64,000 nt of DNA from an uncultured Dehalococcoidales bacterium (GTDB taxonomy: Bacteria > Chloroflexota > Dehalococcoidia > Dehalococcoidales > BS750m-G39). The notes under the pieces are model-generated. The model saw nothing but the letters and a program-made list of their open reading frames with translations, made no database searches and had not been told where the DNA came from. This document shows, piece after piece, positions 4,814-58,768 of the stretch (the first letter of the stretch is position 1; each line of letters starts with the position of its first letter). The stretch spans positions 17,722 to 81,721 of the forward strand of contig CAZDHX010000004.1 of the NCBI GenBank assembly GCA_964505425.1. The letters run 5' to 3'. The position numbers and the translations under genes were made by a program.

Positions 4814-4815
4814 TT

Positions 4816-7306: not shown

Positions 7307-8872
7307 ATGGAAAGGCAGTATAAATACCAGGCGGATATTTCCCCGCGTTATAATATAACCACCAAGCTGGTGGATGAGATGGTGGAAAAGGGGCTGGGCG
7401 ACAAGGTGGCGGTATACTACCAAGACAAGACCTATACCTACCGTGAAATGCAAAGCCTGATAAACAGGGTGGGCAACGCGCTAAAAATTCTTGGGGTGCA
7501 CGTGGAGGAGCGGGTAATCCTGGTCATGTATGATTCCCCGGAGGCGATGGCTAGCTTCTTCGCTGCCATAAAAATCGGGGCTATTCCAGTGCCGGTTAAC
7601 TACATGTACACCATGGACGACTATCGCTATCTGCTGAACAACAGCCGCGCCCGAACCGTTATTGCCAATGGGGATTTTATTGAGGAGATTGAAGGCTTTA
7701 AGGAGAAGTTCCTCTATCTTGAGAACACTATCGTCGTCGGCGAGAAGGGAAGGGCTTATCATATCCCTTTCCATGACATTGTTGACCGCTGTTCCGATAA
7801 ACTGGATGCCGCTTATACCATCTTTGAGGATGCCGCTTTCTGGAATTATACCTCCGGCAGTACCGGTGTTCCCAAGGCGGCAGTCCACCTTCAACATGAT
7901 GTTTTCACCTGCATTGACAGCTACGCCAAGGGTATCCTGGGCATTAACCAGGACGATATACTCTTTTCGGCATCAAAGTTCTTCTTTGCCTACGGATTGG
8001 GCAATAGCTTTATTTATCCCCTGGCTACCGGCGCATCGGTAGTCCTGCTCCCGGACAGACCCCGCCCCAAGACCATATTCTCCACCATCCAGCGCTACCG
8101 CCCCACGGTGTTTTTCGGCGTACCAACGCTCTATGCCAATATGCTGGAGGTAAAGGACGCTGAGAAAGAATACGACCTCTCCTCCCTGCGTATCTGTACC
8201 TCAGCCGGCGAAGCCCTGCCCAAGGAGATATTTTACGAGTTTAAGGAGAGATTTGGGCTGGAAATTTTGGATGGCATCGGCTCAACCGAGCTGTTGCACA
8301 TCTTTATCTCCAACCGCCCCAGCGACATCAAGCCGGGAAGCTCGGGTAAACTGGTGCCGGGATACCGCGCCCGGATTGTTGATGATAACGGCAAGGAAGT
8401 GCCCGATGGGAAGATCGGTACTCTGCAGGTAGAGGGAGAATCGGTGATGGCTTATTACTACCGCCATCACGATAAGACGAGGACCTCCATGTTAGGGGAG
8501 TGGTTTGATACCGGAGATAAGTATTACCGAGACGTGGATGGTTACTACTATTACCGCGGCAGGGCTGATGACATGCTCAAGGTGGGAGGGATATGGGTCT
8601 CACCTATCGAGGTTGAGGATACTCTGATTTCCCACCCGGCGGTGCTCGAAGCAGCAGTGGTGGCCAAACACGACGAGCATTACCTGATCAAGCCTAAGGC
8701 TTTCGTCGTGCTGAGAAAGGGTTATAAGCCATCCGAGGAACTGGCTAAGGATATTCAGGCCTTCGTCAAGAAGAGCATAGCACCTTATAAGTATCCTCGG
8801 TGGATAGAGTTCATTAAAAAACTTCCCAAGACCGCAACCGGCAAGATACAGCGTTACAAGCTAAGAGATTAG
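7307..8872 (+). CDS. Aromatic acid-CoA ligase of the benzoate / 4-hydroxybenzoate-CoA ligase family
   Basis: AMP-binding motifs YTSGSTGVPKAA, GEWFDTGDKY and PKTATGKIQR. The N-terminal region (NRVGNALKILGVHVEERVILVMYDSPE..FFAAIKIGAIPVPVN) resembles BadA/BclA/HbaA-type ligases. 521 aa. Confidence 0.75.
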   Translation: MERQYKYQADISPRYNITTKLVDEMVEKGLGDKVAVYYQDKTYTYREMQSLINRVGNALKILGVHVEERVILVMYDSPEAMASFFAAIKIGAIPVPVNYMYTMDDYRYLLNNSRARTVIANGDFIEEIEGFKEKFLYLENTIVVGEKGRAYHIPFHDIVDRCSDKLDAAYTIFEDAAFWNYTSGSTGVPKAAVHLQHDVFTCIDSYAKGILGINQDDILFSASKFFFAYGLGNSFIYPLATGASVVLLPDRPRPKTIFSTIQRYRPTVFFGVPTLYANMLEVKDAEKEYDLSSLRICTSAGEALPKEIFYEFKERFGLEILDGIGSTELLHIFISNRPSDIKPGSSGKLVPGYRARIVDDNGKEVPDGKIGTLQVEGESVMAYYYRHHDKTRTSMLGEWFDTGDKYYRDVDGYYYYRGRADDMLKVGGIWVSPIEVEDTLISHPAVLEAAVVAKHDEHYLIKPKAFVVLRKGYKPSEELAKDIQAFVKKSIAPYKYPRWIEFIKKLPKTATGKIQRYKLRD

Positions 8873-9105: not shown

Positions 9106-10428
9106 TTACTGACTCATTATGCTTGGGAGCCAGAGGGCTATGTGGGGAAAGGCGATAATCAATGCTATCGCTGCTGCGCTTAGCCCAACAAAGGGAAAGC
9201 TGGCTCGATAGATGTCACCCATCGTGGTCGAAGGCGAGGCTACGCCTTTCATCACAAACAGGCTCAGACCAAAGGGTGGTGATATTTCTGCCATCGTCAA
9301 ATTGATAAGCATTATTACCGCGAACCACACTAGGTTGAAGCCCAGGGCAGTCAAAATGGGCACAAATAGAGGAATAGTGATCATCATTATCGAGACCGCC
9401 TCCATAAAGCAACCCATTATCAATACCACAACCATCATAGAGATGACGACGACAACGGGCGCCAGATGTAAACCTACTGTAAATTCGGTCAAGCTTGCCA
9501 TAGCCTGGCTAAAGACCAAGATTTGGCTAAAGGCCTTCGCGCCTATCAGGATCGTGAATATCATGACTGTAATCCGAAGAGTACCGAAAAAAGATTTCTT
9601 CAGCACTTCGAGATTCAGTTTTCCATGGATGGCAACCAGAATGAAGCAGCCGACAGCCCCGGTGGCTGCCGCCTCACTCGGCGTGGCTATACCCATGAAG
9701 ATAAGGCCAATAACCAGAAAGATAATAATTCCTCCCGGCAACACATAATGTACTGTGTCTACTAACCTATTTAATAAAGGGGTAGTAGACGGCTTATAGC
9801 GGGGAGCGATGGAAGGCTGGAGCCAGCATCTAAGGATAATATAGGCGAAATAAAGCGAGGCCATCAAGACCCCAGGAATAATGATAGCCATCAAAATCTT
9901 TCCAATGGAGATCATGGCCAAGCTACCTAAAAGGACACCTAGGACACTGGGGGGAATCATTACAGCCAAGCCGCCGCTGCCCAGAATAGGTCCCAGACTT
10001 ATGGACTTTTTGTAGCCACGCTTTTCCATCTCTGGCCCTAGTGTCGACCCCAGCACAGCTACACTGGCCATGCTAACACCACATAATGTTGAAAACAGAG
10101 CTCCTGCAATTACCGCTAACAAACTCAACCTACCAGGCAAAGGCCCTAGCCATTTATCCAGGACGTCTATGATATTGAGGCCTATCCCTGAGTGCAACAT
10201 CACTTCCCCCATCAGGATAAACATGGGCACTGCCACCAGAGCAAAAGTGACCACAGAATCATAGATGCTGCAGACGAGTTGCTCTATACCTCCCAAGCCA
10301 CCCCAGAAGACAATTACTCCTATGACATTTATGAGCATGAAGCTAAAAGCCACAGGCAGCCCTGAGAGCATCAGAACAGCTAACCCGCCGAAAATGCACA
10401 GCAGTACAAAATACCACTCCAACGACAT
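9106..10428 (-). CDS. dctM: TRAP transporter large permease (DctM family)
   Basis: 440-aa polytopic membrane protein adjacent to DctQ- and DctP-type genes. The hydrophobic N-terminus is typical of the DctM family. Confidence 0.85.
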   Translation of the reverse strand: MSLEWYFVLLCIFGGLAVLMLSGLPVAFSFMLINVIGVIVFWGGLGGIEQLVCSIYDSVVTFALVAVPMFILMGEVMLHSGIGLNIIDVLDKWLGPLPGRLSLLAVIAGALFSTLCGVSMASVAVLGSTLGPEMEKRGYKKSISLGPILGSGGLAVMIPPSVLGVLLGSLAMISIGKILMAIIIPGVLMASLYFAYIILRCWLQPSIAPRYKPSTTPLLNRLVDTVHYVLPGGIIIFLVIGLIFMGIATPSEAAATGAVGCFILVAIHGKLNLEVLKKSFFGTLRITVMIFTILIGAKAFSQILVFSQAMASLTEFTVGLHLAPVVVVISMMVVVLIMGCFMEAVSIMMITIPLFVPILTALGFNLVWFAVIMLINLTMAEISPPFGLSLFVMKGVASPSTTMGDIYRASFPFVGLSAAAIALIIAFPHIALWLPSIMSQ

Positions 10429-10463
10429 TCCCTCCTGTTTGTATGCATCTAGTGCATTGAAGT

Positions 10464-10985
10464 TTACGGTTCCTTATCCGGTGACACTCTCCAACTCCTC
10501 AGGTAGCCAAAACTTCTTCTCAGGAATTGGATTGAAAGGAGTAAGCTGCCTACAGGAATACAAGCAAACATAGGCCATGTAGGGGGTCGCAAGAGCGTCG
10601 CCGCATACCAGCCAATCTGGAAATGGTAGTAAGTGACCTTTACCCCATAGAAAGTAATAATCAAGAAGATGATTGCGCCAAAAATGGAAGTAGTAATATT
10701 AAGCAGACTCTGAGTTCTTGGGTTTAAACGGTTAAACACCACGTCTATTTTTACGTGCCCCTCCTCCTTTAATACCCAAGCACTACTCGAAAGAGTCAGC
10801 CCCAGTAGACAGTATGTGCAGACTTCTAACATCCAGTATATTGGACACGAAAAAAAATACCTCAGGATAATATCTGCTGTTATACCAAGCAACAGAAAAA
10901 TAAGGATAGCAATTCCAAGAAGAGCTGGGAGAAAAACTGCGCGATCCGCAATAAGGTCAAATTTCCTTAGCAGCTTCATCCTCAC
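10464..10985 (-). CDS. dctQ: TRAP transporter small permease (DctQ family)
   Basis: 173 aa with four predicted TM segments, positioned between the dctP and dctM homologues. Confidence 0.8.
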   Translation of the reverse strand: MRMKLLRKFDLIADRAVFLPALLGIAILIFLLLGITADIILRYFFSCPIYWMLEVCTYCLLGLTLSSSAWVLKEEGHVKIDVVFNRLNPRTQSLLNITTSIFGAIIFLIITFYGVKVTYYHFQIGWYAATLLRPPTWPMFACIPVGSLLLSIQFLRRSFGYLRSWRVSPDKEP

Positions 10986-11024
10986 TTACTACCTTCACAT
11001 TCCTTTAACACATAAAAAGCCCTT

Positions 11025-11067: not shown

Positions 11068-11129
11068 ACCATTCTGTGTAGCAAAGTTCACAAACCTTGC
11101 CACAAGGTATATAAAAGCAGCCGCTACGT

Positions 11130-12179
11130 TTATTTTGTCAACAGCTGCTGAATTTGGGGCCCGAGGTCTGGCGGCAATACCTCTAGAAGGTAAGCCCACT
11201 CGGAGTCATAGCAAACTTTGTCTAGCCAAGCAGCATCCTCTGGCGAGACAGGAATAGGCTCCATTCCGTAGTCTAGCATTGCTTGCCACTCCTCATCCGC
11301 TAGCTCACCATATCTGGCATCAAAGTCCTTTTCTACCTCCGCCTTGGTCTCATCGAGCAAAATTTGCAGATGCTCAGGAAGGCTGTTCCAGGTATCCAGA
11401 TTTACTAGGACTGAAAAATCAGCTGAGAGGAACTTATAATCAAGGACATACTTCTCCACCTCATGAAAGCCATAACCCATATTTCCTACTATGGTCATGG
11501 CCCATCCATCCACTGTCCCGTGTTCCAGAGCAGTATATGCTTCCGAATAGTCTATACGGACGGGGGTAATTCCCAGCGCCTCCATGAAGTGGCGGGCAAT
11601 CGTTCCGTCACCGCAGGTTAGTCCAGCTAGGTCCGTCTTGGGGTCCTCAACCTTTTTGTTAAGATATAGAACGAAATACTCACCCGTCTGACCTTCCTTC
11701 CCTAACCAGTACAAACCGGCCTTCTCGTGCTCTGCCCGTATTAAGTCATAAGCCCCATTCTCTCGCATCTCCCAGGGCGGAATCTGTGCCTTCTGAAGCG
11801 CCTCACCTACCGGCACTAGCCCGGCATAAGCTCCAGGAAAAACATAGCACATATCAAGAACACCCTCCTGCACCGCTGCAGCCTGGGAAAAGCCTTCGAT
11901 CACTTCCGATCCACCCATCCAGTCAAGGACAAGCTCTCCATTAGCTCGTTCATTGACCCTGTCAACAAACATTTGATAGGCGATCATAAGCTTATTATCC
12001 TTGGGAAAGAGAGAACAACTCTTAAGCACTATCGGTTCGACCGTTACCCCTTCTTCTGGTGGTGCTCCTTCTGGTGCTGCTTCTTCCGCAGGAGCGCAAG
12101 CAATGGTGATGGGTAGTGTTGCCAATATTGATATTACACATATAATACCCAGCAGTACGATTAATCTCCTCTTTCTCAT
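11130..12179 (-). CDS. dctP: TRAP transporter solute-binding protein (DctP family), lipoprotein-type
   Basis: Signal peptide with lipobox-like LPITIAC followed by a low-complexity APEEAAPEGAPPEEG linker. 349 aa, next to the permease genes. Confidence 0.8.
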   Translation of the reverse strand: MRKRRLIVLLGIICVISILATLPITIACAPAEEAAPEGAPPEEGVTVEPIVLKSCSLFPKDNKLMIAYQMFVDRVNERANGELVLDWMGGSEVIEGFSQAAAVQEGVLDMCYVFPGAYAGLVPVGEALQKAQIPPWEMRENGAYDLIRAEHEKAGLYWLGKEGQTGEYFVLYLNKKVEDPKTDLAGLTCGDGTIARHFMEALGITPVRIDYSEAYTALEHGTVDGWAMTIVGNMGYGFHEVEKYVLDYKFLSADFSVLVNLDTWNSLPEHLQILLDETKAEVEKDFDARYGELADEEWQAMLDYGMEPIPVSPEDAAWLDKVCYDSEWAYLLEVLPPDLGPQIQQLLTK

Positions 12180-12257
12180 TTAAACCCTCCCAATTTAATA
12201 ATGAATATGAATAAAGCAAATCACCTCATCATCCACTCATCATCTAGCACCTCCTCT

Positions 12258-13691
12258 CTACACGTTCGGTTTACTCAGACCGTATTCTTCCCATCTATCC
12301 AGAACGCGCTTCGTCATATCTTCGTCAAGCGCGATTAAGATGGGCTTCTCTTTCCATTCATAGGGAGTGGTCGCGTCCATAATAATTCTCGAGACAATGT
12401 CACGCTGTCCGATAGGAAGCGACGGGTCAAGGACGGTAGACCGTCCCCTCTTGATGAGTTCCGTATCCCGCAGGGGGTCGTACCTAACGGAAAGCGCCCA
12501 GAATAATCTTCCAATATCATCCGCCGGGATATCAGCATCGACGACGATGACACCCTTTAACCCGTAGTGTCCTGTGGTTGTAGCGATTACTGCGTTGCCT
12601 ACTTGGTTGGCATGTCCCGCATACATCGTTTTCACTGAGACAATAGCCCAAAATCTTCCCGCTGATTCGGGTGGAGTATATACTGACTGGATACCGGGGA
12701 TCTTCATGTTCTCCAAGTCAGTCCATAGTGTGGCGGTGCGGTTAAGGCATTGAATCATATGGGCATCTGTAACCGGGTAACCTACTGTTGTTGCCCACAA
12801 AACCGGATTCTTGCGGGTTAGTATACGCTTAACGTTCAAGCATGGTTTCGGCATTAACTTGCCGGCTTCACCTGAATAATAACCAGTATATTCCCCAAAG
12901 GGCCCCTCCGGTTTAAAATTAAACGGGTCAATTTCCCCTTCTATGATGATCTCCGCATTTGCCGGGAGTTTCAGCCCAGTTAAATCGCTTTTGATTATAT
13001 CAGTGGGTTCACCCCGTAATGCTCCAGAGAGGTCATATTCATCCACTCCAGCTGAAACCATGGTGCTGCCGACAAGGAAGTCAAGGGGGTCACCCCCGAC
13101 TACGGCTGCTGCCGGCATAGGTTTCTTCATCTTTTCATACTTCTTCAAGTGGAAGTCAGCATGTTTGCCTTTAAGAATCTGTATTCCTACATTCTTCTCA
13201 TCTAGTATCTGCATACGATACGTTCCAAGATTAGTCCAACCTGTCTCTGGATCCTGGGTAATCAAATAGCAGGCTGTACCTATGTAACGCCCACCGTCTT
13301 GCGGGTAAAATTGTGGCGCTGGAAAATCAAAAACATTAATATCTTTCCCCTCTATGACCTTTTCCATAACTGGGCCGTCTTTTACCTCGATAGGTTTTAG
13401 CAAGCCCTTTGTGGCAATCTTCATCCATTCCCTAGCCATAGAGCACATAGAGGAGGTCGGTGACATACCCAAGCAAATGGCTAGCCTTTGTGGAGTGGTC
13501 AAAGCACTAGCCAAAAGTGGAATTTTGTAGCCTTTAATGTTTTCGAATAGTAGGGCGGGACCATAGTTTAGTTCATTCAATTTGGCTATATGGGAAATTT
13601 CCAAATTCCAGTCTACTTCGGCCTTGATTCTCTTCAGCGCTCCAACTTCTTCACAAGCCTGAATGAATTCTCCAAGACTTTTTATAGCCAC
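12258..13691 (-). CDS. UbiD-family (prFMN-dependent) reversible decarboxylase/carboxylase
   Basis: 477 aa. The N-terminus LGEFIQACEEVGALKRIKAEVDWNLEISHIAK...GPALLFENIKGY matches the UbiD family pattern. Confidence 0.85.
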   Translation of the reverse strand: MAIKSLGEFIQACEEVGALKRIKAEVDWNLEISHIAKLNELNYGPALLFENIKGYKIPLLASALTTPQRLAICLGMSPTSSMCSMAREWMKIATKGLLKPIEVKDGPVMEKVIEGKDINVFDFPAPQFYPQDGGRYIGTACYLITQDPETGWTNLGTYRMQILDEKNVGIQILKGKHADFHLKKYEKMKKPMPAAAVVGGDPLDFLVGSTMVSAGVDEYDLSGALRGEPTDIIKSDLTGLKLPANAEIIIEGEIDPFNFKPEGPFGEYTGYYSGEAGKLMPKPCLNVKRILTRKNPVLWATTVGYPVTDAHMIQCLNRTATLWTDLENMKIPGIQSVYTPPESAGRFWAIVSVKTMYAGHANQVGNAVIATTTGHYGLKGVIVVDADIPADDIGRLFWALSVRYDPLRDTELIKRGRSTVLDPSLPIGQRDIVSRIIMDATTPYEWKEKPILIALDEDMTKRVLDRWEEYGLSKPNV

Positions 13692-13711
13692 GACTGCATA
13701 CCTCCTTGCTT

Positions 13712-15010
13712 CTATTTTTTATTCTTGGCTGTACCTTTAAATTGAGCCAGCACTTCTTCCAGAGCATCAACCATTACCGAGGCGAATTCATAAGTATTCA
13801 AGTACAAGTCAACCTCTCTGATTTCAACCACATCCGAGTTTATCTCCTTCTTTAGAGTATCAATAAGCAACTTGTTAATTTCAGGCTGATAGAGACTTTG
13901 TCCTGCTTGGTCTGCGATGTGCCAGCCTTTCAAGGGGACCAAGAACTTGACTGGGGCCTTAGCTCGATTCAGCTTACTCGCCACAGCTTTGGCTATCTCC
14001 ACTGCCTCTTCAGCAGATATCTTCGCCGAGACTCTGAGGTCATCCATTGACCATAGCTTTCTTTCCTTAAGCCGCCTTTTCTCCCAGAGCGGGTCTCCTT
14101 TGTCTTTCCGGCTCATTGGGCCGCAACTGATTATGTCCAAGGAGCAGGGTGTTAATATTTGCGGAATCCCCATCTTACCGGCTGCCTCAAGCCTGGTCGG
14201 TATAGCAGCGCGGTTACCCCCCATCAGATATTCGCTTAAACCAGCCACGCACACATCTAAGACAGCATCGAATTTTGTTCCTGATTCAATAAGTTCTTCC
14301 ATGACAGAGTCGCCAATACCAGTACCGTGGAAAGTTATCACCTCGTAGTTGCCCTTACTCTTAAGAATAGTAATTATGTTAGCGCAGCATTGGGCCGAGT
14401 TTAGCTGGGTCATGGCTATTACCTTAGTGCCTGCTTTTTTGAGGTCATCAGTTTCTTCCGAAATGGGTCTGGCTCCACTTTCAACTGCGGCACATATCAT
14501 ATGAGCGGCCCGGATTATGCTGTTCTTCAGGAAAAGGTTCATAGAGTCTGTGTCGACCACGGTGGCAAACAACGCTATGTCACTTCTGCCGATGTAATTG
14601 TACTTGCCCATACCAGCCGTACTTGAAAGTATTAGTTTTGGGAAGCCAAATGGCAATTTCTGACAAACGTTTGAAGCCACCAAAGTATTCGTTGCGCCCC
14701 CCAATGCCACCAAGCCGTCGATTTTGCCCTCGTTCAACAGATCGCTAGCTATTTTAGTTGCACCTTTGGTAAATATCTCTTGCCTTTTTGCTCTTTCACC
14801 AGTTTCTCCCCTGGTATCTGAAGCACTACCGCCTCCAGCAAGGGCGACTTCTAAAGAAGATATGTCCGCTTTTAACTTAGGTTCTTTCAACATACTCAAG
14901 TCCATTACTAGTGGCTTGTGTCCCAGCTGGACTATACATTCGATAAGAAACTTGGCTGCTTCTCCTTTGGTATCGAGGCTAGCCATTACAAGGATATTCT
15001 TCTGGCCCAT
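13712..15010 (-). CDS. UPF0261 / Tm-1-like ATP-binding domain protein
   Basis: N-terminus ILVMASLDTKGEAAKFL and later IDGLVALGGATNT..FGFPKLILSS fit the UPF0261 family as I recall it. 432 aa. No partner PEP-hydrolase-like gene is seen nearby. Confidence 0.65.
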   Translation of the reverse strand: MGQKNILVMASLDTKGEAAKFLIECIVQLGHKPLVMDLSMLKEPKLKADISSLEVALAGGGSASDTRGETGERAKRQEIFTKGATKIASDLLNEGKIDGLVALGGATNTLVASNVCQKLPFGFPKLILSSTAGMGKYNYIGRSDIALFATVVDTDSMNLFLKNSIIRAAHMICAAVESGARPISEETDDLKKAGTKVIAMTQLNSAQCCANIITILKSKGNYEVITFHGTGIGDSVMEELIESGTKFDAVLDVCVAGLSEYLMGGNRAAIPTRLEAAGKMGIPQILTPCSLDIISCGPMSRKDKGDPLWEKRRLKERKLWSMDDLRVSAKISAEEAVEIAKAVASKLNRAKAPVKFLVPLKGWHIADQAGQSLYQPEINKLLIDTLKKEINSDVVEIREVDLYLNTYEFASVMVDALEEVLAQFKGTAKNKK

Positions 15011-15025
15011 TTCCTCCCACCTTTC

Positions 15026-16084
15026 TCAAAGCTCAACTCCCTTTTCAAGGTCTTTGGCGATGTATTCCAATGGCGATAGAGTTGTCTCCTGTCGCTTCTT
15101 CCGGCTCCATATAGTCTCAGGCCTTGCTTGAACGATGAATATGTTATCAGGGAAACTGGCATTCGTTTCGAGAGCAAACTCGATATCCATGGGTCTCTTG
15201 TAATACTGCTCTATCTTCCGGCTCAGCTTGGCAAGTTCTACTACCTCTTCATCAGACACAGAGGGTTCACTTTGGCGGTCTTCTTTTATCTCAATTTTTT
15301 TTGTTCCTGTCTTTTCATCAATGACCCGCTCATGCAGCTTCTTCTTAATTTCTTTCTTGGTAATTCTGAAGAATATCTTGTCGACCAGGAAGCTGTCAGG
15401 GTCTACCTCGGAGCCAACCAGAGTCTCTCCCACACCCCAGACAGACTCTACAGCTATTCTTGACCTGTCCCCCGTAAGTGGATCAATGGTGAAAATCACC
15501 CCGGCTGACCTTGGTTTGACCATTTTTTGCACGCCTACAGATATGACTGCATCACTAAGCTTGAATCCCTTTGAAGTCCGGTATGATATATCTCTCTGAG
15601 TGTACAGACTGGAAAAACATTCAATTACTTTGGAAAGCAAATCGGTCGTTCCTCTGACCCACAGATAAGTCTCATGCTGACCGGCAAAGCTCGCGTCTGG
15701 TGCATCCTCTTCAACCGCACTGGAACGTACTGCGACCGGTATATTGTCATCACCACACTTTTTGGCTAATTCATGATAGGACTCGCAGATTTCAGTGCTC
15801 ACAAAGTCGGGGAACGATGCTGACCTGAATATCTGCCTGATCTGTTCGCTCACGGTTGCCGCTCTCTTGCTATCTTCAAGTCCTTCCTTACTTAGAAGCG
15901 GTTCAATTTCTTTTTGCAACTTGTTGAAGCTCACAAACTCTCTATAAGCTTCAACAGTTACCGCAAAACCTGGTGGTACTGGTACGCCAATGTTCAGCAG
16001 AATCCCTAGATTGGCGTTCTTTCCTCCAACCAAGCCTAGATGCTCTGCAGAACATTCCTCGAACGGAATTACATATTTACCCAT
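15026..16084 (-). CDS. PEP synthase N-terminal (ATP-grasp, PPDK_N) domain protein, phenylphosphate synthase beta (PpsB)-like
   Basis: N-terminus LGLVGGKNANLGILLNIGVPVPPGFAVT is typical of the nucleotide-binding domain of pyruvate,water dikinases. 352 aa with no phosphohistidine domain. Confidence 0.75.
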   Translation of the reverse strand: MGKYVIPFEECSAEHLGLVGGKNANLGILLNIGVPVPPGFAVTVEAYREFVSFNKLQKEIEPLLSKEGLEDSKRAATVSEQIRQIFRSASFPDFVSTEICESYHELAKKCGDDNIPVAVRSSAVEEDAPDASFAGQHETYLWVRGTTDLLSKVIECFSSLYTQRDISYRTSKGFKLSDAVISVGVQKMVKPRSAGVIFTIDPLTGDRSRIAVESVWGVGETLVGSEVDPDSFLVDKIFFRITKKEIKKKLHERVIDEKTGTKKIEIKEDRQSEPSVSDEEVVELAKLSRKIEQYYKRPMDIEFALETNASFPDNIFIVQARPETIWSRKKRQETTLSPLEYIAKDLEKGVEL

Positions 16085-16102
16085 GCTGCCACCTTATTAT
16101 GT

Positions 16103-17962
16103 CTATCCAAGTATTTTGACTATTCCTTCGTTTCCCCTGACTTCGATGGTCTGACCAGTCTTAATTACTCGAGTCCCCACCCCCACTCCAGTGACGGCAG
16201 GTAGTTCGTACTCCCGACACACTATCGCAGCGTGAGACATCACCCCTCCGATGTCTGTTACTGTTCCGGCAATCTTCACAAATACGTATGACCAGGACGG
16301 TTCGGTAGAAGGAGCAACTAGTATTTCCCCCTCTTGCAACTCGCCAAGTTCACTCACCTCCAACACCACCCTCGCTTTGCCTACCACTGTGCCCGGTGAA
16401 CTGGCAAAGCCCTTAAGGATATGACCCTCCTCTCCCGAGGCTACCCCCATTGACTCCTGCCATTTCCCCAAACTTTCCTTAGTGACGCCCCAGAGCATTC
16501 TGGTAAAAGGCTCAGTAACTCTTTCCGGCACGGGCCCTAGTGCCGGGGGTGGTTGCCAGGCCTCCAGTACTGATAAAATTTTCTTTCTTTTGGCTATCTT
16601 TGCTCGCCACCTGTTTCCATTGCTGACACGGTATCCCATGCCGTAGTTGAACATCATTTCAAAAACCAGGTCGGCAATCTCACCCCGTTTGAGACAGAAT
16701 AAGTCTTTGGAGTCATCTATCAGCCCGAAGTCTTTTATGGTGTTGCCTAACCTTTCAAGTGCATGGTACATGGCCTGATGGAACCAACTGTCTATGTAAA
16801 ACTGATGTCCCTCTATGAATGCATACGCTTTTAGGGCTATCTCGTGAAGTTTGTAGAATGTCTGCTTCTCATGCTCTGACTCCAGTAAGCTCCCGTAACC
16901 ATCAAGCAGGCTGCGCCGTTTTTCTTGGACCGTAGCCATAGGTCTCTCCACACTCTTACCTTCCTCGATCCGCCGAACATAATCTATAATTGTACCAATC
17001 GGTATGGATAGGTCATCCAGCCAGGTATATTCTGTACACACATAACCCCGCCCCGTGGCCACATTGAACCAGGGGTCTTTGATTTCGTTGAGTCTCTTTA
17101 ACCAAGTCTTCCCCTCTTTACTTTTCTCAAGTACGGAGAACAGCTCATTCACCTTTTCTCGCTTCAACCCGGCAAACCTCAGGAATGTGTCCTGGAGATT
17201 CAGCTTTATCACAAGTTCAGCCAACTCGATAAGATATTCCTGGGGTTTATACATTTCGACACTGACTCCGGCGGTCATGCTTGAGACTTCTACGTCGCTT
17301 ATATCAGGAAAATGCTCGTGACAAAAATCGTAGAAACTCATATATGCTGAATAACCTATGTTGCAGAATTCAAAGTGATAGCACCAAACTTCATAAAGAA
17401 ATTCGATTAGTTGGTAGTAGTTCAAAATAGGTCTGAGTCCTGGTGATACCTTCTTCTTACTCGTAATGTCGTGCACATATTTTTCAATTTCCTCTTCGTT
17501 GGGGAGGCTAAAATCCATTTTTTCTATAATTCTATTGACTTCATAGATTCTTTCTTTCCTCAGTTCAACAAGCTGTAGCCAATTTTCAAAATAGAATCCT
17601 GCCCTCTCTTGGAACAGCTCCATTCTTTGGGCTACAATCTTAGGGTCGTCGATTATACTTGGCGATGAGTAATAGTAACCGTTAACAATTCGGGTATCCA
17701 CACCAAGCGCGCTGGGTATATTAAATATAGAGCTGTTGTTCTCACCCAACGTCATACCTATAGTCTCTGGATCCCAAGCATCAAATGGATAAACGCACCT
17801 CGGCTTGTGTATGCTGTCCCTGAACCAGAGCCGGTTATCCTCCTCTTCTTTCAGTTCGCCAGGCACGTGAAAGCTAGCGTACATCTCCTCCCATCCCTCT
17901 GCCCCTGGCGGTGTCTCAATCTCGCTCATTTTAGAGAAACTGATCTTTTTGTCATCCATCAC
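16103..17962 (-). CDS. PEP-utilising enzyme with a C-terminal mobile phosphohistidine domain, phenylphosphate synthase alpha (PpsA)-like
   Basis: The C-terminus GTVTDIGGVMSHAAIVCREYELPAV is the swivel His domain. The large N-terminal region has no ATP-grasp domain, consistent with a dikinase split across this gene and 15026..16084. 619 aa. Confidence 0.75.
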   Translation of the reverse strand: MMDDKKISFSKMSEIETPPGAEGWEEMYASFHVPGELKEEEDNRLWFRDSIHKPRCVYPFDAWDPETIGMTLGENNSSIFNIPSALGVDTRIVNGYYYSSPSIIDDPKIVAQRMELFQERAGFYFENWLQLVELRKERIYEVNRIIEKMDFSLPNEEEIEKYVHDITSKKKVSPGLRPILNYYQLIEFLYEVWCYHFEFCNIGYSAYMSFYDFCHEHFPDISDVEVSSMTAGVSVEMYKPQEYLIELAELVIKLNLQDTFLRFAGLKREKVNELFSVLEKSKEGKTWLKRLNEIKDPWFNVATGRGYVCTEYTWLDDLSIPIGTIIDYVRRIEEGKSVERPMATVQEKRRSLLDGYGSLLESEHEKQTFYKLHEIALKAYAFIEGHQFYIDSWFHQAMYHALERLGNTIKDFGLIDDSKDLFCLKRGEIADLVFEMMFNYGMGYRVSNGNRWRAKIAKRKKILSVLEAWQPPPALGPVPERVTEPFTRMLWGVTKESLGKWQESMGVASGEEGHILKGFASSPGTVVGKARVVLEVSELGELQEGEILVAPSTEPSWSYVFVKIAGTVTDIGGVMSHAAIVCREYELPAVTGVGVGTRVIKTGQTIEVRGNEGIVKILG

Positions 17963-18039
17963 CTTTCTCCCAAAACAAGATTATGGTCTCTTTCCCTCGG
18001 CCGTCCTGTGGCAGACCGGGCAGGACAGCCAGCTAATTT

Positions 18040-19110
18040 CTACGTAGACAAGCTAGGACCGGGCTCTCGTAACAAAGGTAACGTTACACAGCGGGCTCCA
18101 TTGGTACCAACTTGCATGCCGGAAGAATCAAATTCAATCACTTCTATTCCCGCTTTACGCACCTTGTCTATGGTTTTCTTGGCTTGAGCGGGCATGATTA
18201 CTTTACCTGGTTCAAGAAGAACACAATTCGCCGGCGCGAATTTATGGTGCTCCTCGGCGTCGACTTCTATGAGCTTAAAGTCTCTAGCCTTGAGCCATCT
18301 GAAAATCTGGTAATCCAGGTACCCTGGATAGATTAGGGCTACCCGTAGGTCAAGCACGCCGAAAATCATATCAATATGGAAGTCACCGCCAGCCCTATAA
18401 TCTTGGTAGGTAGTTGTACAACTTGCAACCGGGATTTCCTTGTAACCGGCCCGCTGTAGGACAGGGACTATTTGAGCTAGCCCTTCCTCGTTACAGGCAC
18501 AAGACCTGTATGCCATAATAGCGTCCTCAGCAACTGGCACAAATACGCCAGCCTCACAAACGCCTTTACCGTGTATGGATAGGAGAATGGGGCAGTTTAT
18601 GTCGGTAAAGAACTTTTGCCAATTAACCTCAAGCCCTCGCATGAAAGACGCTTGTCCCTGCCGGGAGATTATAGCCCCACCTCTCACTACCAGGGGTAAG
18701 GCCAGCATAAATAGCTTCCTCATCGGCCCATATGCCCCCATCGTCTCTGGAGTATCCATCCAATAAACTTCCACACCTTCTCTGTTCAGCAGCTCAGCGT
18801 ACTGGTCCATTGTTCTCTGCAGACTATCGATATCTATCGTTTCTCTTCGCAAGAGATAAAAATCCCTATTCTTTTCCCACAGCGGATTACTCTCATGCTT
18901 CGTTGGTTTAGCTAAAGCAACTGCCCTTAGTTTACCAATGCCCTGGGCACCCCAGTTCTTACCCCAGATTCTCTCGACCTCATCCAGATAATCAATTTGC
19001 TCTATTATCTCGGTATTAGGCGCTTTCCCCGGCTCATAATCGGGATAATTCTCCAGTGGGTAATCCTCGACTTTGCCCCGGTATTCCTTTTTGGGATTCT
19101 GGAATATCAT
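18040..19110 (-). CDS. Guanidino-group-modifying enzyme fold protein (amidinotransferase / arginine deiminase / DDAH superfamily)
   Basis: The C-terminal GTNGARCVTLPLLRE resembles the catalytic-Cys motif that ends ADI/amidinotransferase family proteins. 356 aa. Assigned from motif recognition only. Confidence 0.5.
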   Translation of the reverse strand: MIFQNPKKEYRGKVEDYPLENYPDYEPGKAPNTEIIEQIDYLDEVERIWGKNWGAQGIGKLRAVALAKPTKHESNPLWEKNRDFYLLRRETIDIDSLQRTMDQYAELLNREGVEVYWMDTPETMGAYGPMRKLFMLALPLVVRGGAIISRQGQASFMRGLEVNWQKFFTDINCPILLSIHGKGVCEAGVFVPVAEDAIMAYRSCACNEEGLAQIVPVLQRAGYKEIPVASCTTTYQDYRAGGDFHIDMIFGVLDLRVALIYPGYLDYQIFRWLKARDFKLIEVDAEEHHKFAPANCVLLEPGKVIMPAQAKKTIDKVRKAGIEVIEFDSSGMQVGTNGARCVTLPLLREPGPSLST

Positions 19111-19156
19111 CCTAACCTCCTTATTGAAGCGAGAGAGTTGACACCTTGCTACCTAT

Positions 19157-20185
19157 TTAAGAAGATGGCCGTTTCGACTTTGCCTCCTCAATTTCCTTCA
19201 GGTTCAGTTTCATGATTCTCGCTACATTCTTGTAACACATTAAATCAGCCTCTTCCTGGCTAAAATCATAGCCATACCGACTGGCGATCTCGGGCAAGTT
19301 TCGGAACAGATCGCACCATTCTTTAAGGATCTCAGCGGGGAAAGTGGGCATATCGGTGCCAAAGAGGATGTTGGCACATCCGCCAATTAACGTATTACGC
19401 ATAACGTCGAGCATATCAATGAAATCGGGGGTATGATCCTTGTATTTGCCTTTGCTTCCACGGAACCCACCTTTTATAACTGTAGGTGCCACCTGCCCCA
19501 TTTCAAGATTGATATTCGGAATATACCTAGCGGCAACGCACATCTCCTGCCATAGCTCCCCAATGCCGCCACCGGCATGAGCAGCGATAAACTCTAACTC
19601 GGGAAAATCTAGGGCTGCTTCTTCAAGATGGACAGGGTTAGCATATTTCGAGTATCTAAAAATACCGGCTCCCGTATGGACATTGACCGGTACTCCAAGC
19701 TCAAGGCATTTTTCGTAAAGCGGATAACATATCCTATCATTTGGATAGAAGCCGGTATGGGGAAGCAGTTTTAATCCTAAAGCACCCCACTCTTTGACAC
19801 CCTTCTCAAGAAGCTCAACCGCTGCCTTTCCTCGTAACGGGTTCACACCAATAAACGTATAGAACTTACCCTTGAGCCTTTTCGACCATTGACAGTATTC
19901 GAAATTAATCTCCTCAACGGACATCGGAGCCTCGTCACCAGCAAATCCCTCAGCACTACCGAAGTCGTTTGTCACATTAACACAAGCATCAATGCCACAG
20001 CTCTCCATAATCTTGATCCATCGTTCTGCGCCGGGGTCGAAATAATGTGGACGCGACTTCGCAAGCCATTCGTCAATAGTACCGAAGGGTAACTCCTTTC
20101 TGGATTCTCTCCATGCCATCGAACGCAAGAACCAATTCGGGAGCATCTCGCGAATCCAGACATGGCAATGAGCATCAATTAACAT
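19157..20185 (-). CDS. Amidohydrolase_2-family metal-dependent hydrolase/decarboxylase
   Basis: N-terminal IDAHCHVW metal-binding motif and later HTGAG, AHAGGG and FGTDMP. 342 aa. Confidence 0.7.
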   Translation of the reverse strand: MLIDAHCHVWIREMLPNWFLRSMAWRESRKELPFGTIDEWLAKSRPHYFDPGAERWIKIMESCGIDACVNVTNDFGSAEGFAGDEAPMSVEEINFEYCQWSKRLKGKFYTFIGVNPLRGKAAVELLEKGVKEWGALGLKLLPHTGFYPNDRICYPLYEKCLELGVPVNVHTGAGIFRYSKYANPVHLEEAALDFPELEFIAAHAGGGIGELWQEMCVAARYIPNINLEMGQVAPTVIKGGFRGSKGKYKDHTPDFIDMLDVMRNTLIGGCANILFGTDMPTFPAEILKEWCDLFRNLPEIASRYGYDFSQEEADLMCYKNVARIMKLNLKEIEEAKSKRPSS

Positions 20186-20220: not shown

Positions 20221-20688
20221 TTATTCTTGTTTCCCCACCACAGCCTGGATAGCCTCAACGATTTTGGCATAGCCGGTACAGCGGCAGATATTGCCCGAGA
20301 GTGCTTTCCTGATTTCAGCCTCGGTCGGGTTAGGGTTTTCCTCCAGAAATGCTTTGGTGAATAATATCATGCCCGGAGTACAAAAACCGCATTGCACAGC
20401 CCCATGGTCGATAAAGGCTTTTTGGATGGGATGTAGATCCCCATTCTTAGCCAGGCCTTCAATAGTCGTTATGTTCCTGTTCCTGACACTAACAGCTAAG
20501 GTCAGGCAGGACCGTATTGGTTTACCGTCGAGAAGGACAGTGCAAGCCCCACACTTTCCGGTATCACAGCCATGCTTGGTGCCAGTGAGCCCCAGCCTTT
20601 CCCTAAGCACAAACATTAGTGTGTCACTGGGCTTTACTGTAACCTCATAAGGTTGTTCGTTGACAATGAGGTTTATTATCTGTCTCAA
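20221..20688 (-). CDS. Molybdenum hydroxylase small subunit, two [2Fe-2S] (CoxS/HcrC-like)
   Basis: Motifs GCDTGKCGACTV and CGFCTPG...CRCTGY. 155 aa. Confidence 0.9.
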   Translation of the reverse strand: MRQIINLIVNEQPYEVTVKPSDTLMFVLRERLGLTGTKHGCDTGKCGACTVLLDGKPIRSCLTLAVSVRNRNITTIEGLAKNGDLHPIQKAFIDHGAVQCGFCTPGMILFTKAFLEENPNPTEAEIRKALSGNICRCTGYAKIVEAIQAVVGKQE

Positions 20689-20690: not shown

Positions 20691-21554
20691 TTATCCTCCT
20701 ACCTCGGTATTCATGCAGGACGTCAGGGCTCTCATTGTGAGGACATAGGCCATCTGTTTTCGGTACTCGGCACTCGCCCTGACATCTGATATCGGGCTGC
20801 AGTCTTCCATGGCGAGCCGTGCCGCCTTGTCTATCGTGGCTTCGCTGATAGCTTTGCCAATAAGGGCCTCCTCGGCTTTTTTAGCTCTCAAGGGCGTTGG
20901 AAATACTGAGCCCAGAGCTATACGAGCACTGTCGAATCGGCTATTCTTCATGCTGACTAATGTAGCTACCGACACCACGGCCAGGTCAGATATTGACCTT
21001 GTCCCGAACTTTATGTATCCCCATCGGGCAGTTGTTGAAGGTAAAGGTATTTGGACTTCAGTAAGTATCTCATTTGGTTTCATTACTGTGTTGCCGGGTC
21101 CGGTAAAGAACTCCTCTACCGGCACCGTCCTGGTGCCGCCCAGTCCCGCTATATTCACTCTTGCTGATAATGCAATAAGGGGCGCCGGGGTATCGGCTCC
21201 CGGTGAAGCATTGCACAGGTTGCCTCCCAGGGTAGCCATATTGCCTATGGTAATCGAGGCGAATTGCTCAGCAACTTGGACAATCTGGGGACATACCCGC
21301 TTAAGCTCCGTTGACTTGGCTATCGACTGCATGGTAGTGGTCGCCCCGATTCTTATCACGTCCTCACAGCTGATGTAGGCGAGTCCAGGTACAGCTTTAA
21401 GGTCTATAATGTGCTTGGGCTTTCTAGTGTTCATTATCATCCTTATCACCAGGTCGGTACCACCAGCCATTACCTTCACCGACTCCTTGTGCTTATCGAG
21501 CAGGGAGATGGCTTCACTGACGGTTTGGGGCTCAAGATACTCAAAATCCTGCAT
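20691..21554 (-). CDS. Molybdenum hydroxylase FAD-binding medium subunit (CoxM/HcrB-like)
   Basis: Motifs AGGTDL and ATLGGNL and the CO-dehydrogenase flavoprotein C-terminal region. 287 aa. No Cys-rich insertion is present. Confidence 0.85.
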   Translation of the reverse strand: MQDFEYLEPQTVSEAISLLDKHKESVKVMAGGTDLVIRMIMNTRKPKHIIDLKAVPGLAYISCEDVIRIGATTTMQSIAKSTELKRVCPQIVQVAEQFASITIGNMATLGGNLCNASPGADTPAPLIALSARVNIAGLGGTRTVPVEEFFTGPGNTVMKPNEILTEVQIPLPSTTARWGYIKFGTRSISDLAVVSVATLVSMKNSRFDSARIALGSVFPTPLRAKKAEEALIGKAISEATIDKAARLAMEDCSPISDVRASAEYRKQMAYVLTMRALTSCMNTEVGG

Positions 21555-24001: not shown

Positions 24002-24040
24002 CCGAAAAAGAATAGAGCCAATTGCATAATTGGCTCTATT
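24002..24040 (-). terminator. Intrinsic-terminator-like hairpin (or palindromic operator) in the leader of the Mo-hydroxylase operon
   Basis: Perfect 13-bp arms aatagagccaatt / aattggctctatt (24011-24023 and 24028-24040) with a 4-nt loop. On the minus strand the hairpin is followed by CTTTTTCGG, and it ends 47 nt upstream of the start codon at 23964. Confidence 0.55.
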
Positions 24041-24121
24041 CACCATAGGGTATATCCGTTCATGTTCTTTTGCTGTATCATAATGATAATCAGATAAGAA
24101 TATCACAAATGCTTAGCATCC

Positions 24122-24149
24122 ATTCTACCACACTATCGGGCATTGTCAA
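24122..24149 (-). promoter_or_regulatory. Sigma-70-type promoter for the 23964..9106 operon
   Basis: Minus strand reads TTGACA (24149-24144), a 16-nt spacer, then TAGAAT (24127-22) preceded by TGg (extended -10). Confidence 0.6.
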
Positions 24150-24519
24150 GCCCCTAGCGTATCGAATCTAATCACTTACTTAACAAAGAGACGAGTTCCT
24201 GGGGAGTAGGGAATTCTTTTGAGGGGACAACATGTCTTCCCGGTGAAGTCGTTGTCGTTGCAGCCGAAGTTATCGGCATACGCATCGATCAGACCTTTGC
24301 TAATATACATAATAGCATAGGCATAGCGGATAGCAATACTCTCCCTACTTTGCGGAATACTCACCAAGATATGCCGGAACAGTGGGGGAGGTTAATACTC
24401 ACGAGTATATTCTTATTTGACAAAAGATTAAGATTTTTATAAAGAATTTTATGAACCAGTGGAAAATGCTTCTATGAAGTGCTAAAATGAAATATTACAA
24501 TAAATGGTGGGAAATGTAT

Positions 24520-25011
24520 ATGGTAAAAACTGTATTTGATGCAGATGACGATTTGATGGTGTGGTGGTTAATACTACAGACAAGGGAAATTATGTATAAA
24601 GCCAGAACCAAGGAACTGTTTCAATATAGGGTTACGCCCCAAGAGTCTCAGGTTTTATGGGTTATTAAAGGTCTGGGCCACGCGCCAACGCCGACTGAGA
24701 TATCGCGATGGCTCTTGCGCGAACCACACGCAATCAGCACTATCTTGAAGAGAATGGAAAAGAAAGGCTTGGTGAGAAGAGAGTGTGATCCGCATAAAAA
24801 GAATGTGTTAAGAGTCTTTATCACGAAAAAGGGACTAGAACTGTACCCTAAGTTGGCAACGAGAGAGGTAGTCCACCAGGTAATGTCTGTAGTAACTGAA
24901 AAAGAGCGCCAGCAAATAAGGCCAATATTAAAGAAGATACGGGATAAATCAATAGACGTGCTGGCAACGTATAATAAAAAACTTATATCACCAGATTTTC
25001 TGGTTGGGTGA
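24520..25011 (+). CDS. MarR-family transcriptional regulator
   Basis: Winged-helix region LWVIKGLGHAPTPTEISRWLLREPHAISTILKRMEKKGLVRRECDPHKKNVLRVFITKKG. I prefer the ATG at 24520 (GGTGGG 8 nt upstream) over 24487. Confidence 0.8.
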   Translation: MVKTVFDADDDLMVWWLILQTREIMYKARTKELFQYRVTPQESQVLWVIKGLGHAPTPTEISRWLLREPHAISTILKRMEKKGLVRRECDPHKKNVLRVFITKKGLELYPKLATREVVHQVMSVVTEKERQQIRPILKKIRDKSIDVLATYNKKLISPDFLVG

Positions 25012-56558: not shown

Positions 56559-56576
56559 TGCTCATCCCTCCTTTTA

Positions 56577-57407: not shown

Positions 57408-57430
57408 GCTGTCCCCCTTTCTAGGCCTTG

Positions 57431-58750: not shown

Positions 58751-58768
58751 CTTTCCCCCCTAATCTTT

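Follow-up and report, generated by a model that had tools for sequence, protein, structure and literature searches.

A UPF0261 protein, putatively a second aryl kinase, beside the dikinase and single UbiD of a phenylphosphate-carboxylase-like operon from an uncultured Dehalococcoidales bacterium

Much of the entry of pollutants and lignin-derived aromatics into metabolism depends on the anaerobic carboxylation of phenols and anilines. The Thauera/Azoarcus architecture (ppsABC, ppcBCAD) is represented here by the single cluster of Azoarcus sp. KH32C, whose plasmid (pAZKH) carries a sigma-54 regulator, ppsA, ppsB, a CBS protein, ppcB, ppcD, ppcA, ppcG, UbiD, UbiX, DUF120 and NUDIX genes. No UPF0261 gene was found within 12 kb of this cluster; apparent UPF0261 matches in the locus were not real, coming from over-extended query open reading frames (ORFs) that overlapped UbiX and PpcB. 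Here we compare described systems with a locus in a 64-kb stretch of the 97-kb contig CAZDHX010000004.1 from an uncultured Dehalococcoidales bacterium (the window, meaning the whole stretch analyzed). Its four core genes encode two dikinase subunits (PpsA-like and PpsB-like), a UPF0261 protein and a UbiD-family (de)carboxylase. PpsA, PpsB and PpcB of Azoarcus are 38%, 43% and 56.5% identical to their window counterparts, and the same phosphorylate-then-carboxylate logic is proposed for both. The accessory genes are reversed: Azoarcus has PpsC, PpcA, PpcD, PpcG, a further UbiD, UbiX, DUF120 and NUDIX but no UPF0261, whereas the window has UPF0261 and none of the others.

The 'phe' and 'ani' clusters of Desulfatiglans anilini share with the window a dikinase of two subunits, one PpcB-type UbiD encoded within the cluster, and a UPF0261 gene that precedes UbiD (by locus-tag order in D. 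anilini). They also share genes of the xanthine dehydrogenase (XDH) family ('CO dehydrogenase'/4-hydroxybenzoyl-CoA reductase (4-HBCR)-like), an acyl-CoA ligase and aniline-induced binding proteins of tripartite ATP-independent periplasmic (TRAP) transporters. They differ in having a sigma-54-dependent regulator where the window has MarR, and the nitrohydrolase-like and Amidohydro_2 genes of the window are not reported there. In the aniline cluster, the UPF0261 protein H567DRAFT_03869 is encoded between Pas-beta and an acyl-CoA synthetase, and its replicate 1 values were 5.4e9 on 4-aminobenzoate, 6.5e8 on aniline and 0 on both benzoate and phenol (PMC7500099). That of the phenol cluster, H567DRAFT_02057, lies between a ubiX-like gene and Ppc-beta2 and is about 50-fold up on phenol, with replicate 1 values of 0, 5e7, 5e7 and 2.5e9 on 4-aminobenzoate, aniline, benzoate and phenol (PMC7500099). 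Aniline and 4-aminobenzoate each induce the entire aniline cluster along with the TRAP binding proteins. In vitro, aniline was converted to 4-aminobenzoate by PasAB and two UbiD subunits alone, UPF0261 not being included. Phenylphosphate carboxylase activity was not measurable in D. anilini extracts, assayed without nucleotide, and a different mechanism was proposed; homologues of ppsC, ppcA and ppcD are scattered elsewhere in the genome; and the carboxylase mechanism and high ATP cost of organisms with a single PpcB-type UbiD were stated to be open questions (PMC6114531). In full-text searches of the accessible literature, neither D. anilini paper came up for the term UPF0261 in its body text, nor did we find any paper linking UPF0261 or Tm-1-like proteins with phenylphosphate or UbiD.

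The first catalytic activity for the UPF0261 family came in 2025 from MarK (Saro_1862) of Novosphingobium aromaticivorans (PDB 9MPY), a homodimer that phosphorylates aromatics such as acetovanillone on their phenolic OH while converting ATP to ADP (PMC12624787). A dikinase-type kinase and a MarK homologue are found together in about 25% of the genomes that have an aromatic kinase gene, and the paper makes no mention of UbiD, phenylphosphate or anaerobes (PMC12624787). MarK and the window protein have in common the N- and C-terminal UPF0261 domains, an Asp-Thr-Lys ATP motif, a histidine at the phenolic oxygen and an aromatic catabolic context in which phosphorylation precedes carboxylation, as we propose for the window. 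They differ in that MarK works in an aerobe with a biotin-dependent carboxylase acting on the acetyl side chain, whereas the partner in the window is a UbiD ring carboxylase. The hydroxyphenylethanone dikinases AcvAB/HpeHI belong to the same split dikinase family as PpsA/PpsB, with other substrates and a biotin-dependent carboxylase.

Geobacter-type loci (G. metallireducens Gmet_2100-2102; G. argillaceus L045) resemble the window in having ppsA, ppsB, a single ppcB and UPF0261 within one transcription unit, with no ppcA, ppcD or ppcG. The order in G. argillaceus is XylR-type regulator, PpsA, PpsB, PpcB, UPF0261, CBS protein, UbiX and phenol-pathway porin; unlike in the window, ppcB comes before UPF0261, the CBS protein (PpsC) and UbiX follow, and the regulator is of XylR type. 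In G. metallireducens, UPF0261 would likewise follow ppcB, judging from G. argillaceus and Geotalea toluenoxydans. Identities to the window are 39% for PpsA, 42% for PpsB, 36% for UPF0261 and 60% for UbiD, and the ATP-site Lys shared by MarK and the window protein is an Arg in the Geobacter-type UPF0261.

We propose that the window holds a peripheral operon of the single-UbiD type that would phosphorylate and then carboxylate a phenol- or aniline-like arene, with UPF0261 as a second, ADP-forming aryl kinase, a reading whose chances we judge to be evenly balanced. The core genes are as follows:

16103..17962, minus strand: PpsA-like dikinase subunit, 619 aa, with a substrate domain and a His-swivel domain (His577)
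15026..16084, minus strand: PpsB-like ATP-binding dikinase subunit, 352 aa (Pfam PPDK_N, E 2e-104)
13712..15010, minus strand: UPF0261 (Tm-1/MarK family) two-domain protein, 432 aa (Pfam PF06792 and PF23189)
12258..13691, minus strand: PpcB-type UbiD (de)carboxylase, 477 aa (UbiD_N, UbiD and UbiD_C)

The original prediction, made from the letters of the DNA, had given these genes products of 619, 352, 432 and 477 aa, and we found the four ORFs to be of these sizes, lying head to tail on the minus strand; its assignment to a phenylphosphate-synthase/carboxylase-like module is upheld by matches to NF006153, PPDK_N and TIGR02724. The 619-aa protein matches NCBIfam NF006153 over its full length (632 bits; cut-off 578), and its sole Pfam match is the phosphoenolpyruvate (PEP)-utilizers mobile domain at residues 543-613. 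Its motif GGVMSHAAIVCREYELPAV spans residues 572-590, with His577 within GGVMSHAAIV. The PpsB-like gene starts 18 bp downstream of the PpsA-like gene.

Alignment with the Azoarcus proteins, one of the checks that had been suggested, gave 37.9% identity for PpsA, 43% for PpsB, and 56.5% to PpcB against 30% to PpcA for UbiD; it placed the UbiD in the PpcB type and gave no sign of phenol-specific PpsA orthology. Compared with PpsA from 65 phenol-type loci and Azoarcus, the window protein is 34-41% identical and does not cluster with phenol-specific PpsA. Among candidates scored from a collection of 5.8e9 sequences, only one PpsA relative exceeded 42% identity. In a PpsA tree, the window protein and this metagenomic relative form a separate long branch, outside the phenol-cluster PpsAs and outside the actinobacterial PEP-utilizing enzymes of the dikinase family, which share about 40% identity with the window PpsA and sit on another branch. 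The contig of the relative encodes a molybdenum (Mo) enzyme, PpsA, PpsB, UPF0261 and UbiD, followed by DUF1989 and a TRAP system, so that the four-gene order recurs on an independent metagenome contig at 64-72% identity to the window. Published identities in D. anilini (PasA 27-28% to PpsA, Ppc-beta 52% to Ppc-beta2), set against 38% and 57-74% for the window, suggest that the window PpsA is not orthologous to PasA and is no ordinary PpsA either.

The UbiD is assigned more firmly. It passes TIGR02724, 'phenylphosphate carboxylase subunit beta' (612 bits; cut-off 469), and fails the alpha-subunit model TIGR02723 (188 bits; cut-off 565). The 119 other clusters listed for it are all 63-74% identical, many named PpcB by NCBI, and 2606 proteins score E <= 1e-60 against it. 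Presence and absence of the remaining subunits were assessed within the window DNA, using Pfam scans of the main ORFs over the 64 kb that were 100 aa or longer and not nested (shorter and nested ORFs lying outside this set) and tblastn with UbiX and CBS-type PpsC of Geobacter and PpsC, PpcD, PpcG and UbiX of Azoarcus. In the window, neither approach found a second UbiD, the sole UbiD match being the gene itself. There was likewise no UbiX/Flavoprotein family member (Pfam ORF scan; Geobacter and Azoarcus UbiX), no PpsC/CBS-pair protein (Pfam; Geobacter and Azoarcus PpsC), and no PpcD/HAD family protein or PpcG (Pfam for HAD; Azoarcus PpcD and PpcG). The absence from the window of PpsC, second UbiD, PpcD, UbiX and small carboxylase subunit had been noted before and agrees with both searches. 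Because gaps in the operon are only 1-144 bp, there is no space for a hidden small subunit between its genes; the missing PpsC could be encoded elsewhere in the genome.

To see how the arrangement compares more widely, we scanned an alignment of the window-UbiD clade against species-representative genomes, which gave 80 loci with UbiD 59-71% identical to that of the window, and searched each with the window proteins by tblastn. The loci come from Desulfobacterota, Geobacter and Geotalea, Bacillota, Dehalococcoidia, Actinomycetota and many Burkholderiales, and 51 have enough flank (at least 4 kb upstream and at least 4.5 kb downstream). UPF0261 lies near UbiD, that is within 6 kb, in 68 of 80 loci and in 47 of the 51 with enough flank. 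Within that subset, PpsA and PpsB occur together in 48 and all three proteins in 45; the prevailing order across the 80 is PpsA, PpsB, UbiD, UPF0261. UbiX (62/80; 45/51) and a CBS protein (52/80; 37/51) are also common near UbiD. A second UbiD is rare (3/80; 2/51), PpcD homologues occur in two of the 80 loci, and PpcG homologues in none.

The original prediction had treated the module as a reduced form with UPF0261 inserted into it. Neither description survives: a single UbiD is common in Geobacter, Desulfatiglans, many Burkholderiales, Bacillota and Dehalococcoidia, and UPF0261 is a standard fourth gene, already present in the phenol and aniline clusters of D. anilini. Co-occurrence in no other genome, which was to have counted against the proposal, is the opposite of what 47 of 51 comparable loci display. 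With this frequency, UPF0261 is a conserved partner of the PpcB-type UbiD clade and not an insertion. Because the 80 loci mostly carry UPF0261 without PpcD or PpcG and the Azoarcus cluster does the opposite, there appear to be two architectures, with UPF0261 the apparent hallmark of the single-UbiD one. In the window, PpsA, PpsB and UPF0261 are just 34-46% identical to their counterparts in the 80 loci, as against 59-71% for UbiD, and by these comparisons its dikinase and UPF0261 form a rare, divergent lineage.

Several loci depart from the prevailing order. The closest UbiD relatives (74%) have, in order, LysR, UbiX, LpdD-like, PpsA, PpsB, UbiD, ligase and low-molecular-weight phosphatase genes and then one or two UPF0261 genes. 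In these clusters, L090 (13194-16234) and L091 (13250-15040), a low-molecular-weight phosphotyrosine-type phosphatase gene stands directly before one or two tandem UPF0261 genes, and UbiX and an LpdD-chaperone-like gene lie upstream of the dikinase. Four Desulfobacterota loci (L017, L028, L030 and L043) have two different UPF0261 genes flanking one pps-ppcB unit, the upstream copy being on the opposite strand and the other lying downstream. An unusually dense 18-kb locus, L001 (JGI 3300033145, Ga0366840_1001511), encodes five members of the UbiD family, of which one is cut off by the end of the locus, along with two UPF0261 proteins. It also has two Mo large-subunit genes of the XDH family, one accompanied by its FAD and FeS subunits, and genes for a dimethyl sulfoxide reductase-family enzyme and a protein of metallo-beta-lactamase fold; no dikinase was seen over the 18 kb.

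Over its length, the window UPF0261 protein matches Tm-1 (E 2e-37) and MarK (9MPY; E 3.5e-32) in the PDB. Asp13-Thr14-Lys15 aligns with the MarK ATP motif Asp14-Thr15-Lys16, and His228 with MarK His219, the histidine that hydrogen-bonds the phenolic oxygen; in the window UPF0261 clade Lys15 is invariant and His228 nearly so. An AlphaFold model (pLDDT 83.8) matched Tm-1 and 9MPY, and nothing else, over both domains in Foldseek (E about 1e-26), with a TM-score of about 0.5 that reflects a different orientation of the two domains to each other. By its homology to MarK, the protein is probably an ADP-forming aryl kinase. We dropped an equation of MarK His304 with the invariant Arg317 of the window clade, a hint of a carboxylate substrate, since pairwise and multiple alignments disagree there.

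UbiD-linked UPF0261 proteins are closer to each other than to MarK and fall into several clades, that of the window being sister to a Dehalococcoidia/Syntrophaceae phenol-type clade whose UbiDs (70-71% identity) are among the closest to the window UbiD in the genome scan. For window-type UPF0261 proteins (52-76% identity), UbiD is nearby in eight of nine contexts inspected, these UbiDs being 36-72% identical to that of the window. No dikinase was seen in seven of those eight; besides the window, only the contig of the PpsA relative, among those inspected, has one. Five of the nine contexts contain a TRAP system and one a tripartite tricarboxylate transporter (TTT) system. In these contexts, mostly dikinase-free, the genes that keep together most tightly are those for UPF0261, UbiD and a carboxylate transporter. 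It is conceivable, though we would not count on it, that UPF0261 and UbiD form a general two-protein 'phosphorylate then ring-carboxylate' unit in which the dikinase is optional, the window lineage acting on a novel, possibly N-containing arene.

Four considerations lead us to prefer a second kinase: no activity other than kinase is known for the family; UbiD-UPF0261 operons that lack a dikinase require a kinase of some sort; the UbiDs of D. anilini break the P-N bond in vitro unaided; and MarK-type and dikinase-type kinases often co-occur in aerobic acetovanillone degraders. The protein had originally been put forward as a new accessory subunit. Its functional membership in the module stands, with 47 of 51 loci, and an independent second kinase fits better, given MarK. 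A specific form of the accessory proposal, doubtful in our view, is that UPF0261, instead of supplying aryl phosphate, binds it and deals with its phosphoryl group at UbiD, replacing the PpcD phosphatase (and PpcA/PpcG). Most of the 80 loci have UPF0261 where PpcA, PpcD and PpcG are absent and the one Thauera-type cluster lacks it, although this mutual exclusion rests on that one cluster. The commonest arrangement puts UPF0261 directly after ppcB. Its pairwise distances correlate most strongly with those of UbiD (r = 0.91 over 56 modules, against 0.89 for the known partners PpsA and PpsB, with no correction for shared phylogeny). The D. anilini extract assay that failed without nucleotide, for which its authors proposed a different mechanism (PMC6114531), would also fit an accessory. 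Such a protein would, however, leave dikinase-free UbiD-UPF0261-transporter operons with no source of aryl phosphate, and in vitro UPF0261 is dispensable for the cleavage and carboxylation of phenylphosphoamidate by the UbiD subunits of D. anilini. The kinase activity known for the family speaks against it too, and returning the phosphate to ADP would probably be uphill, MarK readily running in the kinase direction. We rejected a related idea, that UPF0261 works backwards, making ATP from the aryl phosphate as UbiD carboxylates, on the reasoning that MarK readily acts in the kinase direction and that carboxylation needs driving.

UPF0261 could instead be imagined as a kinase that supplies the cofactor, prenylated flavin mononucleotide (FMN), for example by making dimethylallyl phosphate, and so replaces Thauera-type NUDIX and riboflavin kinase genes. 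Azoarcus does have UbiX, DUF120 (riboflavin kinase-like) and NUDIX without UPF0261, DUF120 occurs in four loci and NUDIX in two (each count including the Azoarcus cluster), and UPF0261 is usually near UbiX. We nevertheless think this very improbable. Mean identity across the compared modules is 54% for UPF0261 and 70% for UbiD, which is unexpected for an enzyme of one invariant cofactor precursor, and the window UPF0261 is as divergent as PpsA, the proposed substrate-binding subunit. D. anilini has retained two paralogues that respond to different aromatic substrates; the window has UPF0261 without UbiX; and MarK binds an aromatic compound, through a contacting histidine that is kept in the window.

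The four-gene core is part of a single operon of 12 minus-strand genes running from 23964 to 9106 with gaps of 1-144 bp. Transcription order is Mo enzyme (large, FAD and [2Fe-2S] subunits), Amidohydro_2 protein, pentein hydrolase, PpsA, PpsB, UPF0261, UbiD and DctPQM. This context, with its Mo enzyme, two hydrolases and TRAP transporter, and a CoA ligase next to it, had been missed. The remaining features are:

24487..25011, plus strand: MarR-family regulator, divergent and upstream of the operon (Pfam MarR_2, HTH_27 and MarR)
24122..24149, minus strand: sigma-70-like promoter candidate (TTGACA, 16 nt, TAGAAT, extended TG; 11/12 consensus positions)
24010..24041, no strand: perfect 14-nt inverted repeat GAATAGAGCCAATT / AATTGGCTCTATTC with a 4-nt spacer, between promoter candidate and first gene
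21556..23964, minus strand: Mo large subunit, XDH family (Pfam Ald_Xan_dh_C and MoCoBD_1/2)
20691..21554, minus strand: flavin adenine dinucleotide (FAD) subunit of the Mo enzyme, 287 aa (Pfam FAD_binding_5 and CO_deh_flav_C; closest to CutM/CoxM)
20221..20688, minus strand: [2Fe-2S] subunit of the Mo enzyme (Pfam Fer2 and Fer2_2)
19157..20185, minus strand: Amidohydro_2 (PF04909) metal-dependent hydrolase or decarboxylase (Pfam E 7e-26)
18040..19110, minus strand: pentein (guanidino-group-modifying) superfamily hydrolase, homologue of 2-nitroimidazole nitrohydrolase (PDB 9azg)
11130..12179, minus strand: TRAP solute-binding protein, DctP family (Pfam DctP; nearest PDB entries 4mnc and 4mni, E 2e-30)
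10464..10985, minus strand: TRAP small membrane subunit DctQ (Pfam DctQ)
9106..10428, minus strand: TRAP large membrane subunit DctM, the last gene of the operon (Pfam DctM)
7307..8872, plus strand: benzoate-CoA ligase family gene, convergent downstream (TIGR02262, 629 bits; cut-off 375)
55626..59923, minus strand: genes of a Bzd-type class I benzoyl-CoA reductase (BzdN, BzdO and BzdQ equivalogs above cut-offs)

The promoter candidate is the top match of the scanned region, by consensus alone. The inverted repeat, next to which TTTTT follows on the minus strand, is a candidate MarR operator or 5' hairpin. From 10000 to 20000 (dikinase, UPF0261, UbiD and TRAP genes) G+C is 0.46-0.476, compared with about 0.49-0.57 in nearly all other 2-kb windows, and from this low G+C the operon may have been acquired horizontally.

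The Mo large subunit finds its best PDB match in the 4-HBCR alpha subunit (1rm6_A, 357 bits), followed by CoxL (316 bits), and its best NCBIfam match in TIGR03194, at 535 bits under the cut-off of 995. For the Amidohydro_2 protein there was no NCBIfam match and PDB matches were weak, to LigJ and BB4693; the pentein hydrolase matches 9azg over its full length (E 4e-44), and Pfam ADI and DDAH match its C terminus only. The TRAP binding protein's nearest structures, 4MNC and 4MNI, reportedly carry benzoylformate, which would be in keeping with an aromatic acid as ligand. Among the bzd genes, the fourth (56577-57407) exceeds the cut-off only of an acyl-CoA dehydratase activase domain model and is called BzdP by position. 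Around them (52796-60818, minus strand) lie genes for an 832-aa FeS/NAD(P) flavoprotein (52796-55294), a ferredoxin (55287-55613) and a PaaX-type regulator (59958-60818). With the CoA ligase and 4-HBCR-like Mo enzyme, BzdNOPQ in the same window point to an anaerobic degrader of aromatics via benzoyl-CoA, and the operon would be fully equipped to convert a substituted arene to benzoyl-CoA. At the other end of the window, 934-6214 looks like an electron-transfer module of the heterodisulfide-reductase type, with an HdrA2-like gene (934-2919) and an MvhD/FlpD-like gene (5735-6214) that enclose genes for three FeS or FAD proteins.

Under the reading we prefer, with UPF0261 as second kinase, the OH or NH2 group of a phenol- or aniline-like (hetero)aromatic would first be phosphorylated. 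The dikinase would do so by converting ATP to AMP and Pi through phospho-His577; UPF0261, as a MarK-like aryl kinase converting ATP to ADP in one step, would make that aryl phosphate, or a closely related one, for half as much ATP or serve a second substrate, and in related dikinase-free operons would be the only kinase. The PpcB-type UbiD would then carboxylate the resulting aryl phosphate or phosphoamidate para to the OH or NH2 group with loss of the phosphate, and the neighboring benzoate-CoA-ligase-family enzyme would form the CoA thioester. Removal of the substituent by the 4-HBCR-like Mo enzyme would yield benzoyl-CoA, to be reduced by the Bzd-type reductase, whose genes lie 35 kb away. 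Uptake of an acidic precursor or of the carboxylated intermediate is probably the task of the TRAP transporter, paralleling D. anilini, and the two hydrolases probably free the arene from a precursor.

A number of observations weigh against this scheme. MarK and the window UPF0261 are only about 25-28% identical, and the positions of MarK Gly195, Thr196, Ile285 and His348 are changed (to a gap or Asn, to Asn or Ser, to Ser, and to Ala, as the alignments variously place them), with Phe283 replaced by Ile; differing acetovanillone-pocket residues are expected if the substrate differs. Arg occupies the MarK ATP-site Lys16 position in the Geobacter/Burkholderiales clade, and Ser replaces His219 both in the clade of Desulfomonilaceae and other Desulfobacterota and in the Bacillota-type clade; with these replacements, UbiD-linked UPF0261 proteins may not all work alike. 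A redundant kinase leaves its near-universal retention beside the dikinase needing another explanation, and does not explain the apparent mutual exclusion with PpcA, PpcD and PpcG. The window lacks UbiX, though the UbiD family generally depends on prenylated FMN, and holds one UbiD where the D. anilini system in vitro required two paralogues. The survey counts describe the 80 loci most similar to the window UbiD and are not valid for all UbiD carboxylases. Lastly, the FAD subunit (287 aa, against 324) aligns to 1rm6_B over residues 2-115 only, leaving the 4-HBCR-specific region unmatched. This region includes the [4Fe-4S]-bearing insertion reported for the 4-HBCR beta subunit in the 1RM6 structure. 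We rejected membership of the Mo enzyme in true 4-HBCR for want of this insertion; it may nevertheless function like 4-HBCR, since Mo enzymes resembling it, of the XDH family and with FAD-subunit matches of about 260-310 aa in one piece, occur in the phenol-type clusters of other anaerobes.

XDH-family enzymes typically hydroxylate N-heterocycles, and the FAD subunit here is of the hydroxylase/CO-dehydrogenase type without the 4-HBCR insertion. The Mo enzyme could thus act first, hydroxylating a TRAP-imported N-heteroaromatic acid whose new OH (lactam) would be phosphorylated and whose ring would be carboxylated or otherwise processed, with the hydrolases cutting amidine-like C-N bonds. The 2-nitroimidazole nitrohydrolase homologue within the operon would suit this route, as would related contigs that join UPF0261, UbiD, XDH-family enzymes and carboxylate transporters, one of them with a DUF1989 protein. 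It is an unlikely route all the same: the Mo large subunit is closest to the 4-HBCR alpha subunit, the benzoate-CoA ligase family gene and BzdNOPQ share the window, UbiD sits firmly in the PpcB clade, and one-piece FAD-subunit matches also occur in the XDH-family enzymes of phenol-type clusters elsewhere. DUF1989 is a family that includes carboxyguanidine deiminases. On speculation, the nitrohydrolase-like enzyme and the DUF1989 protein of the sister contig hint at an amidine- or guanidine-like C-N bond in the pathway.

Within the second-kinase reading, the substrate is probably not phenol itself, judging by the divergent dikinase/UPF0261 lineage and the different regulator (MarR, not XylR-type); action on another arene had been allowed for, rightly on this evidence. 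Plain phenol is further disfavored by the lack of PpsC and UbiX in the window together with the two extra hydrolases. An ordinary phenol pathway, with PpsC, UbiX and further subunits encoded elsewhere and UPF0261 dispensable, would explain why UbiD passes the NCBIfam PpcB equivalog, and the scattering of ppsC, ppcA and ppcD homologues in the D. anilini genome offers a precedent (PMC6114531). We regard it as distinctly improbable. PpsA, PpsB and UPF0261 are 34-46% identical to those of phenol-type loci while UbiD reaches 59-71%, the PpsA branch lies outside all phenol-cluster PpsAs, and Geobacter and Azoarcus have a XylR/sigma-54 phenol sensor where the window has MarR. UbiX and a CBS protein, present in 45 and 37 of 51 comparable loci, are both missing from the window, and the operon includes the extra hydrolase genes and the TRAP system.

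What is new here is UPF0261 as a conserved, substrate-induced and hitherto ignored member of single-UbiD aryl carboxylation modules. If UPF0261 and UbiD do form a general two-protein unit, UPF0261 would be an unrecognized component of single-UbiD carboxylation in Geobacter, Desulfatiglans and many other bacteria, which would explain why phenylphosphate carboxylase was never demonstrated in D. anilini extracts, and phenol-type activation could cost one rather than two ATP equivalents. A role for UPF0261 in these modules could revise the textbook pathway, and a function would follow for a large part of this widespread 'unknown function' family. In the Dehalococcoidales operon, the divergent dikinase/UPF0261 lineage and the unusual hydrolases point to an undiscovered substrate for phosphorylation-carboxylation chemistry.

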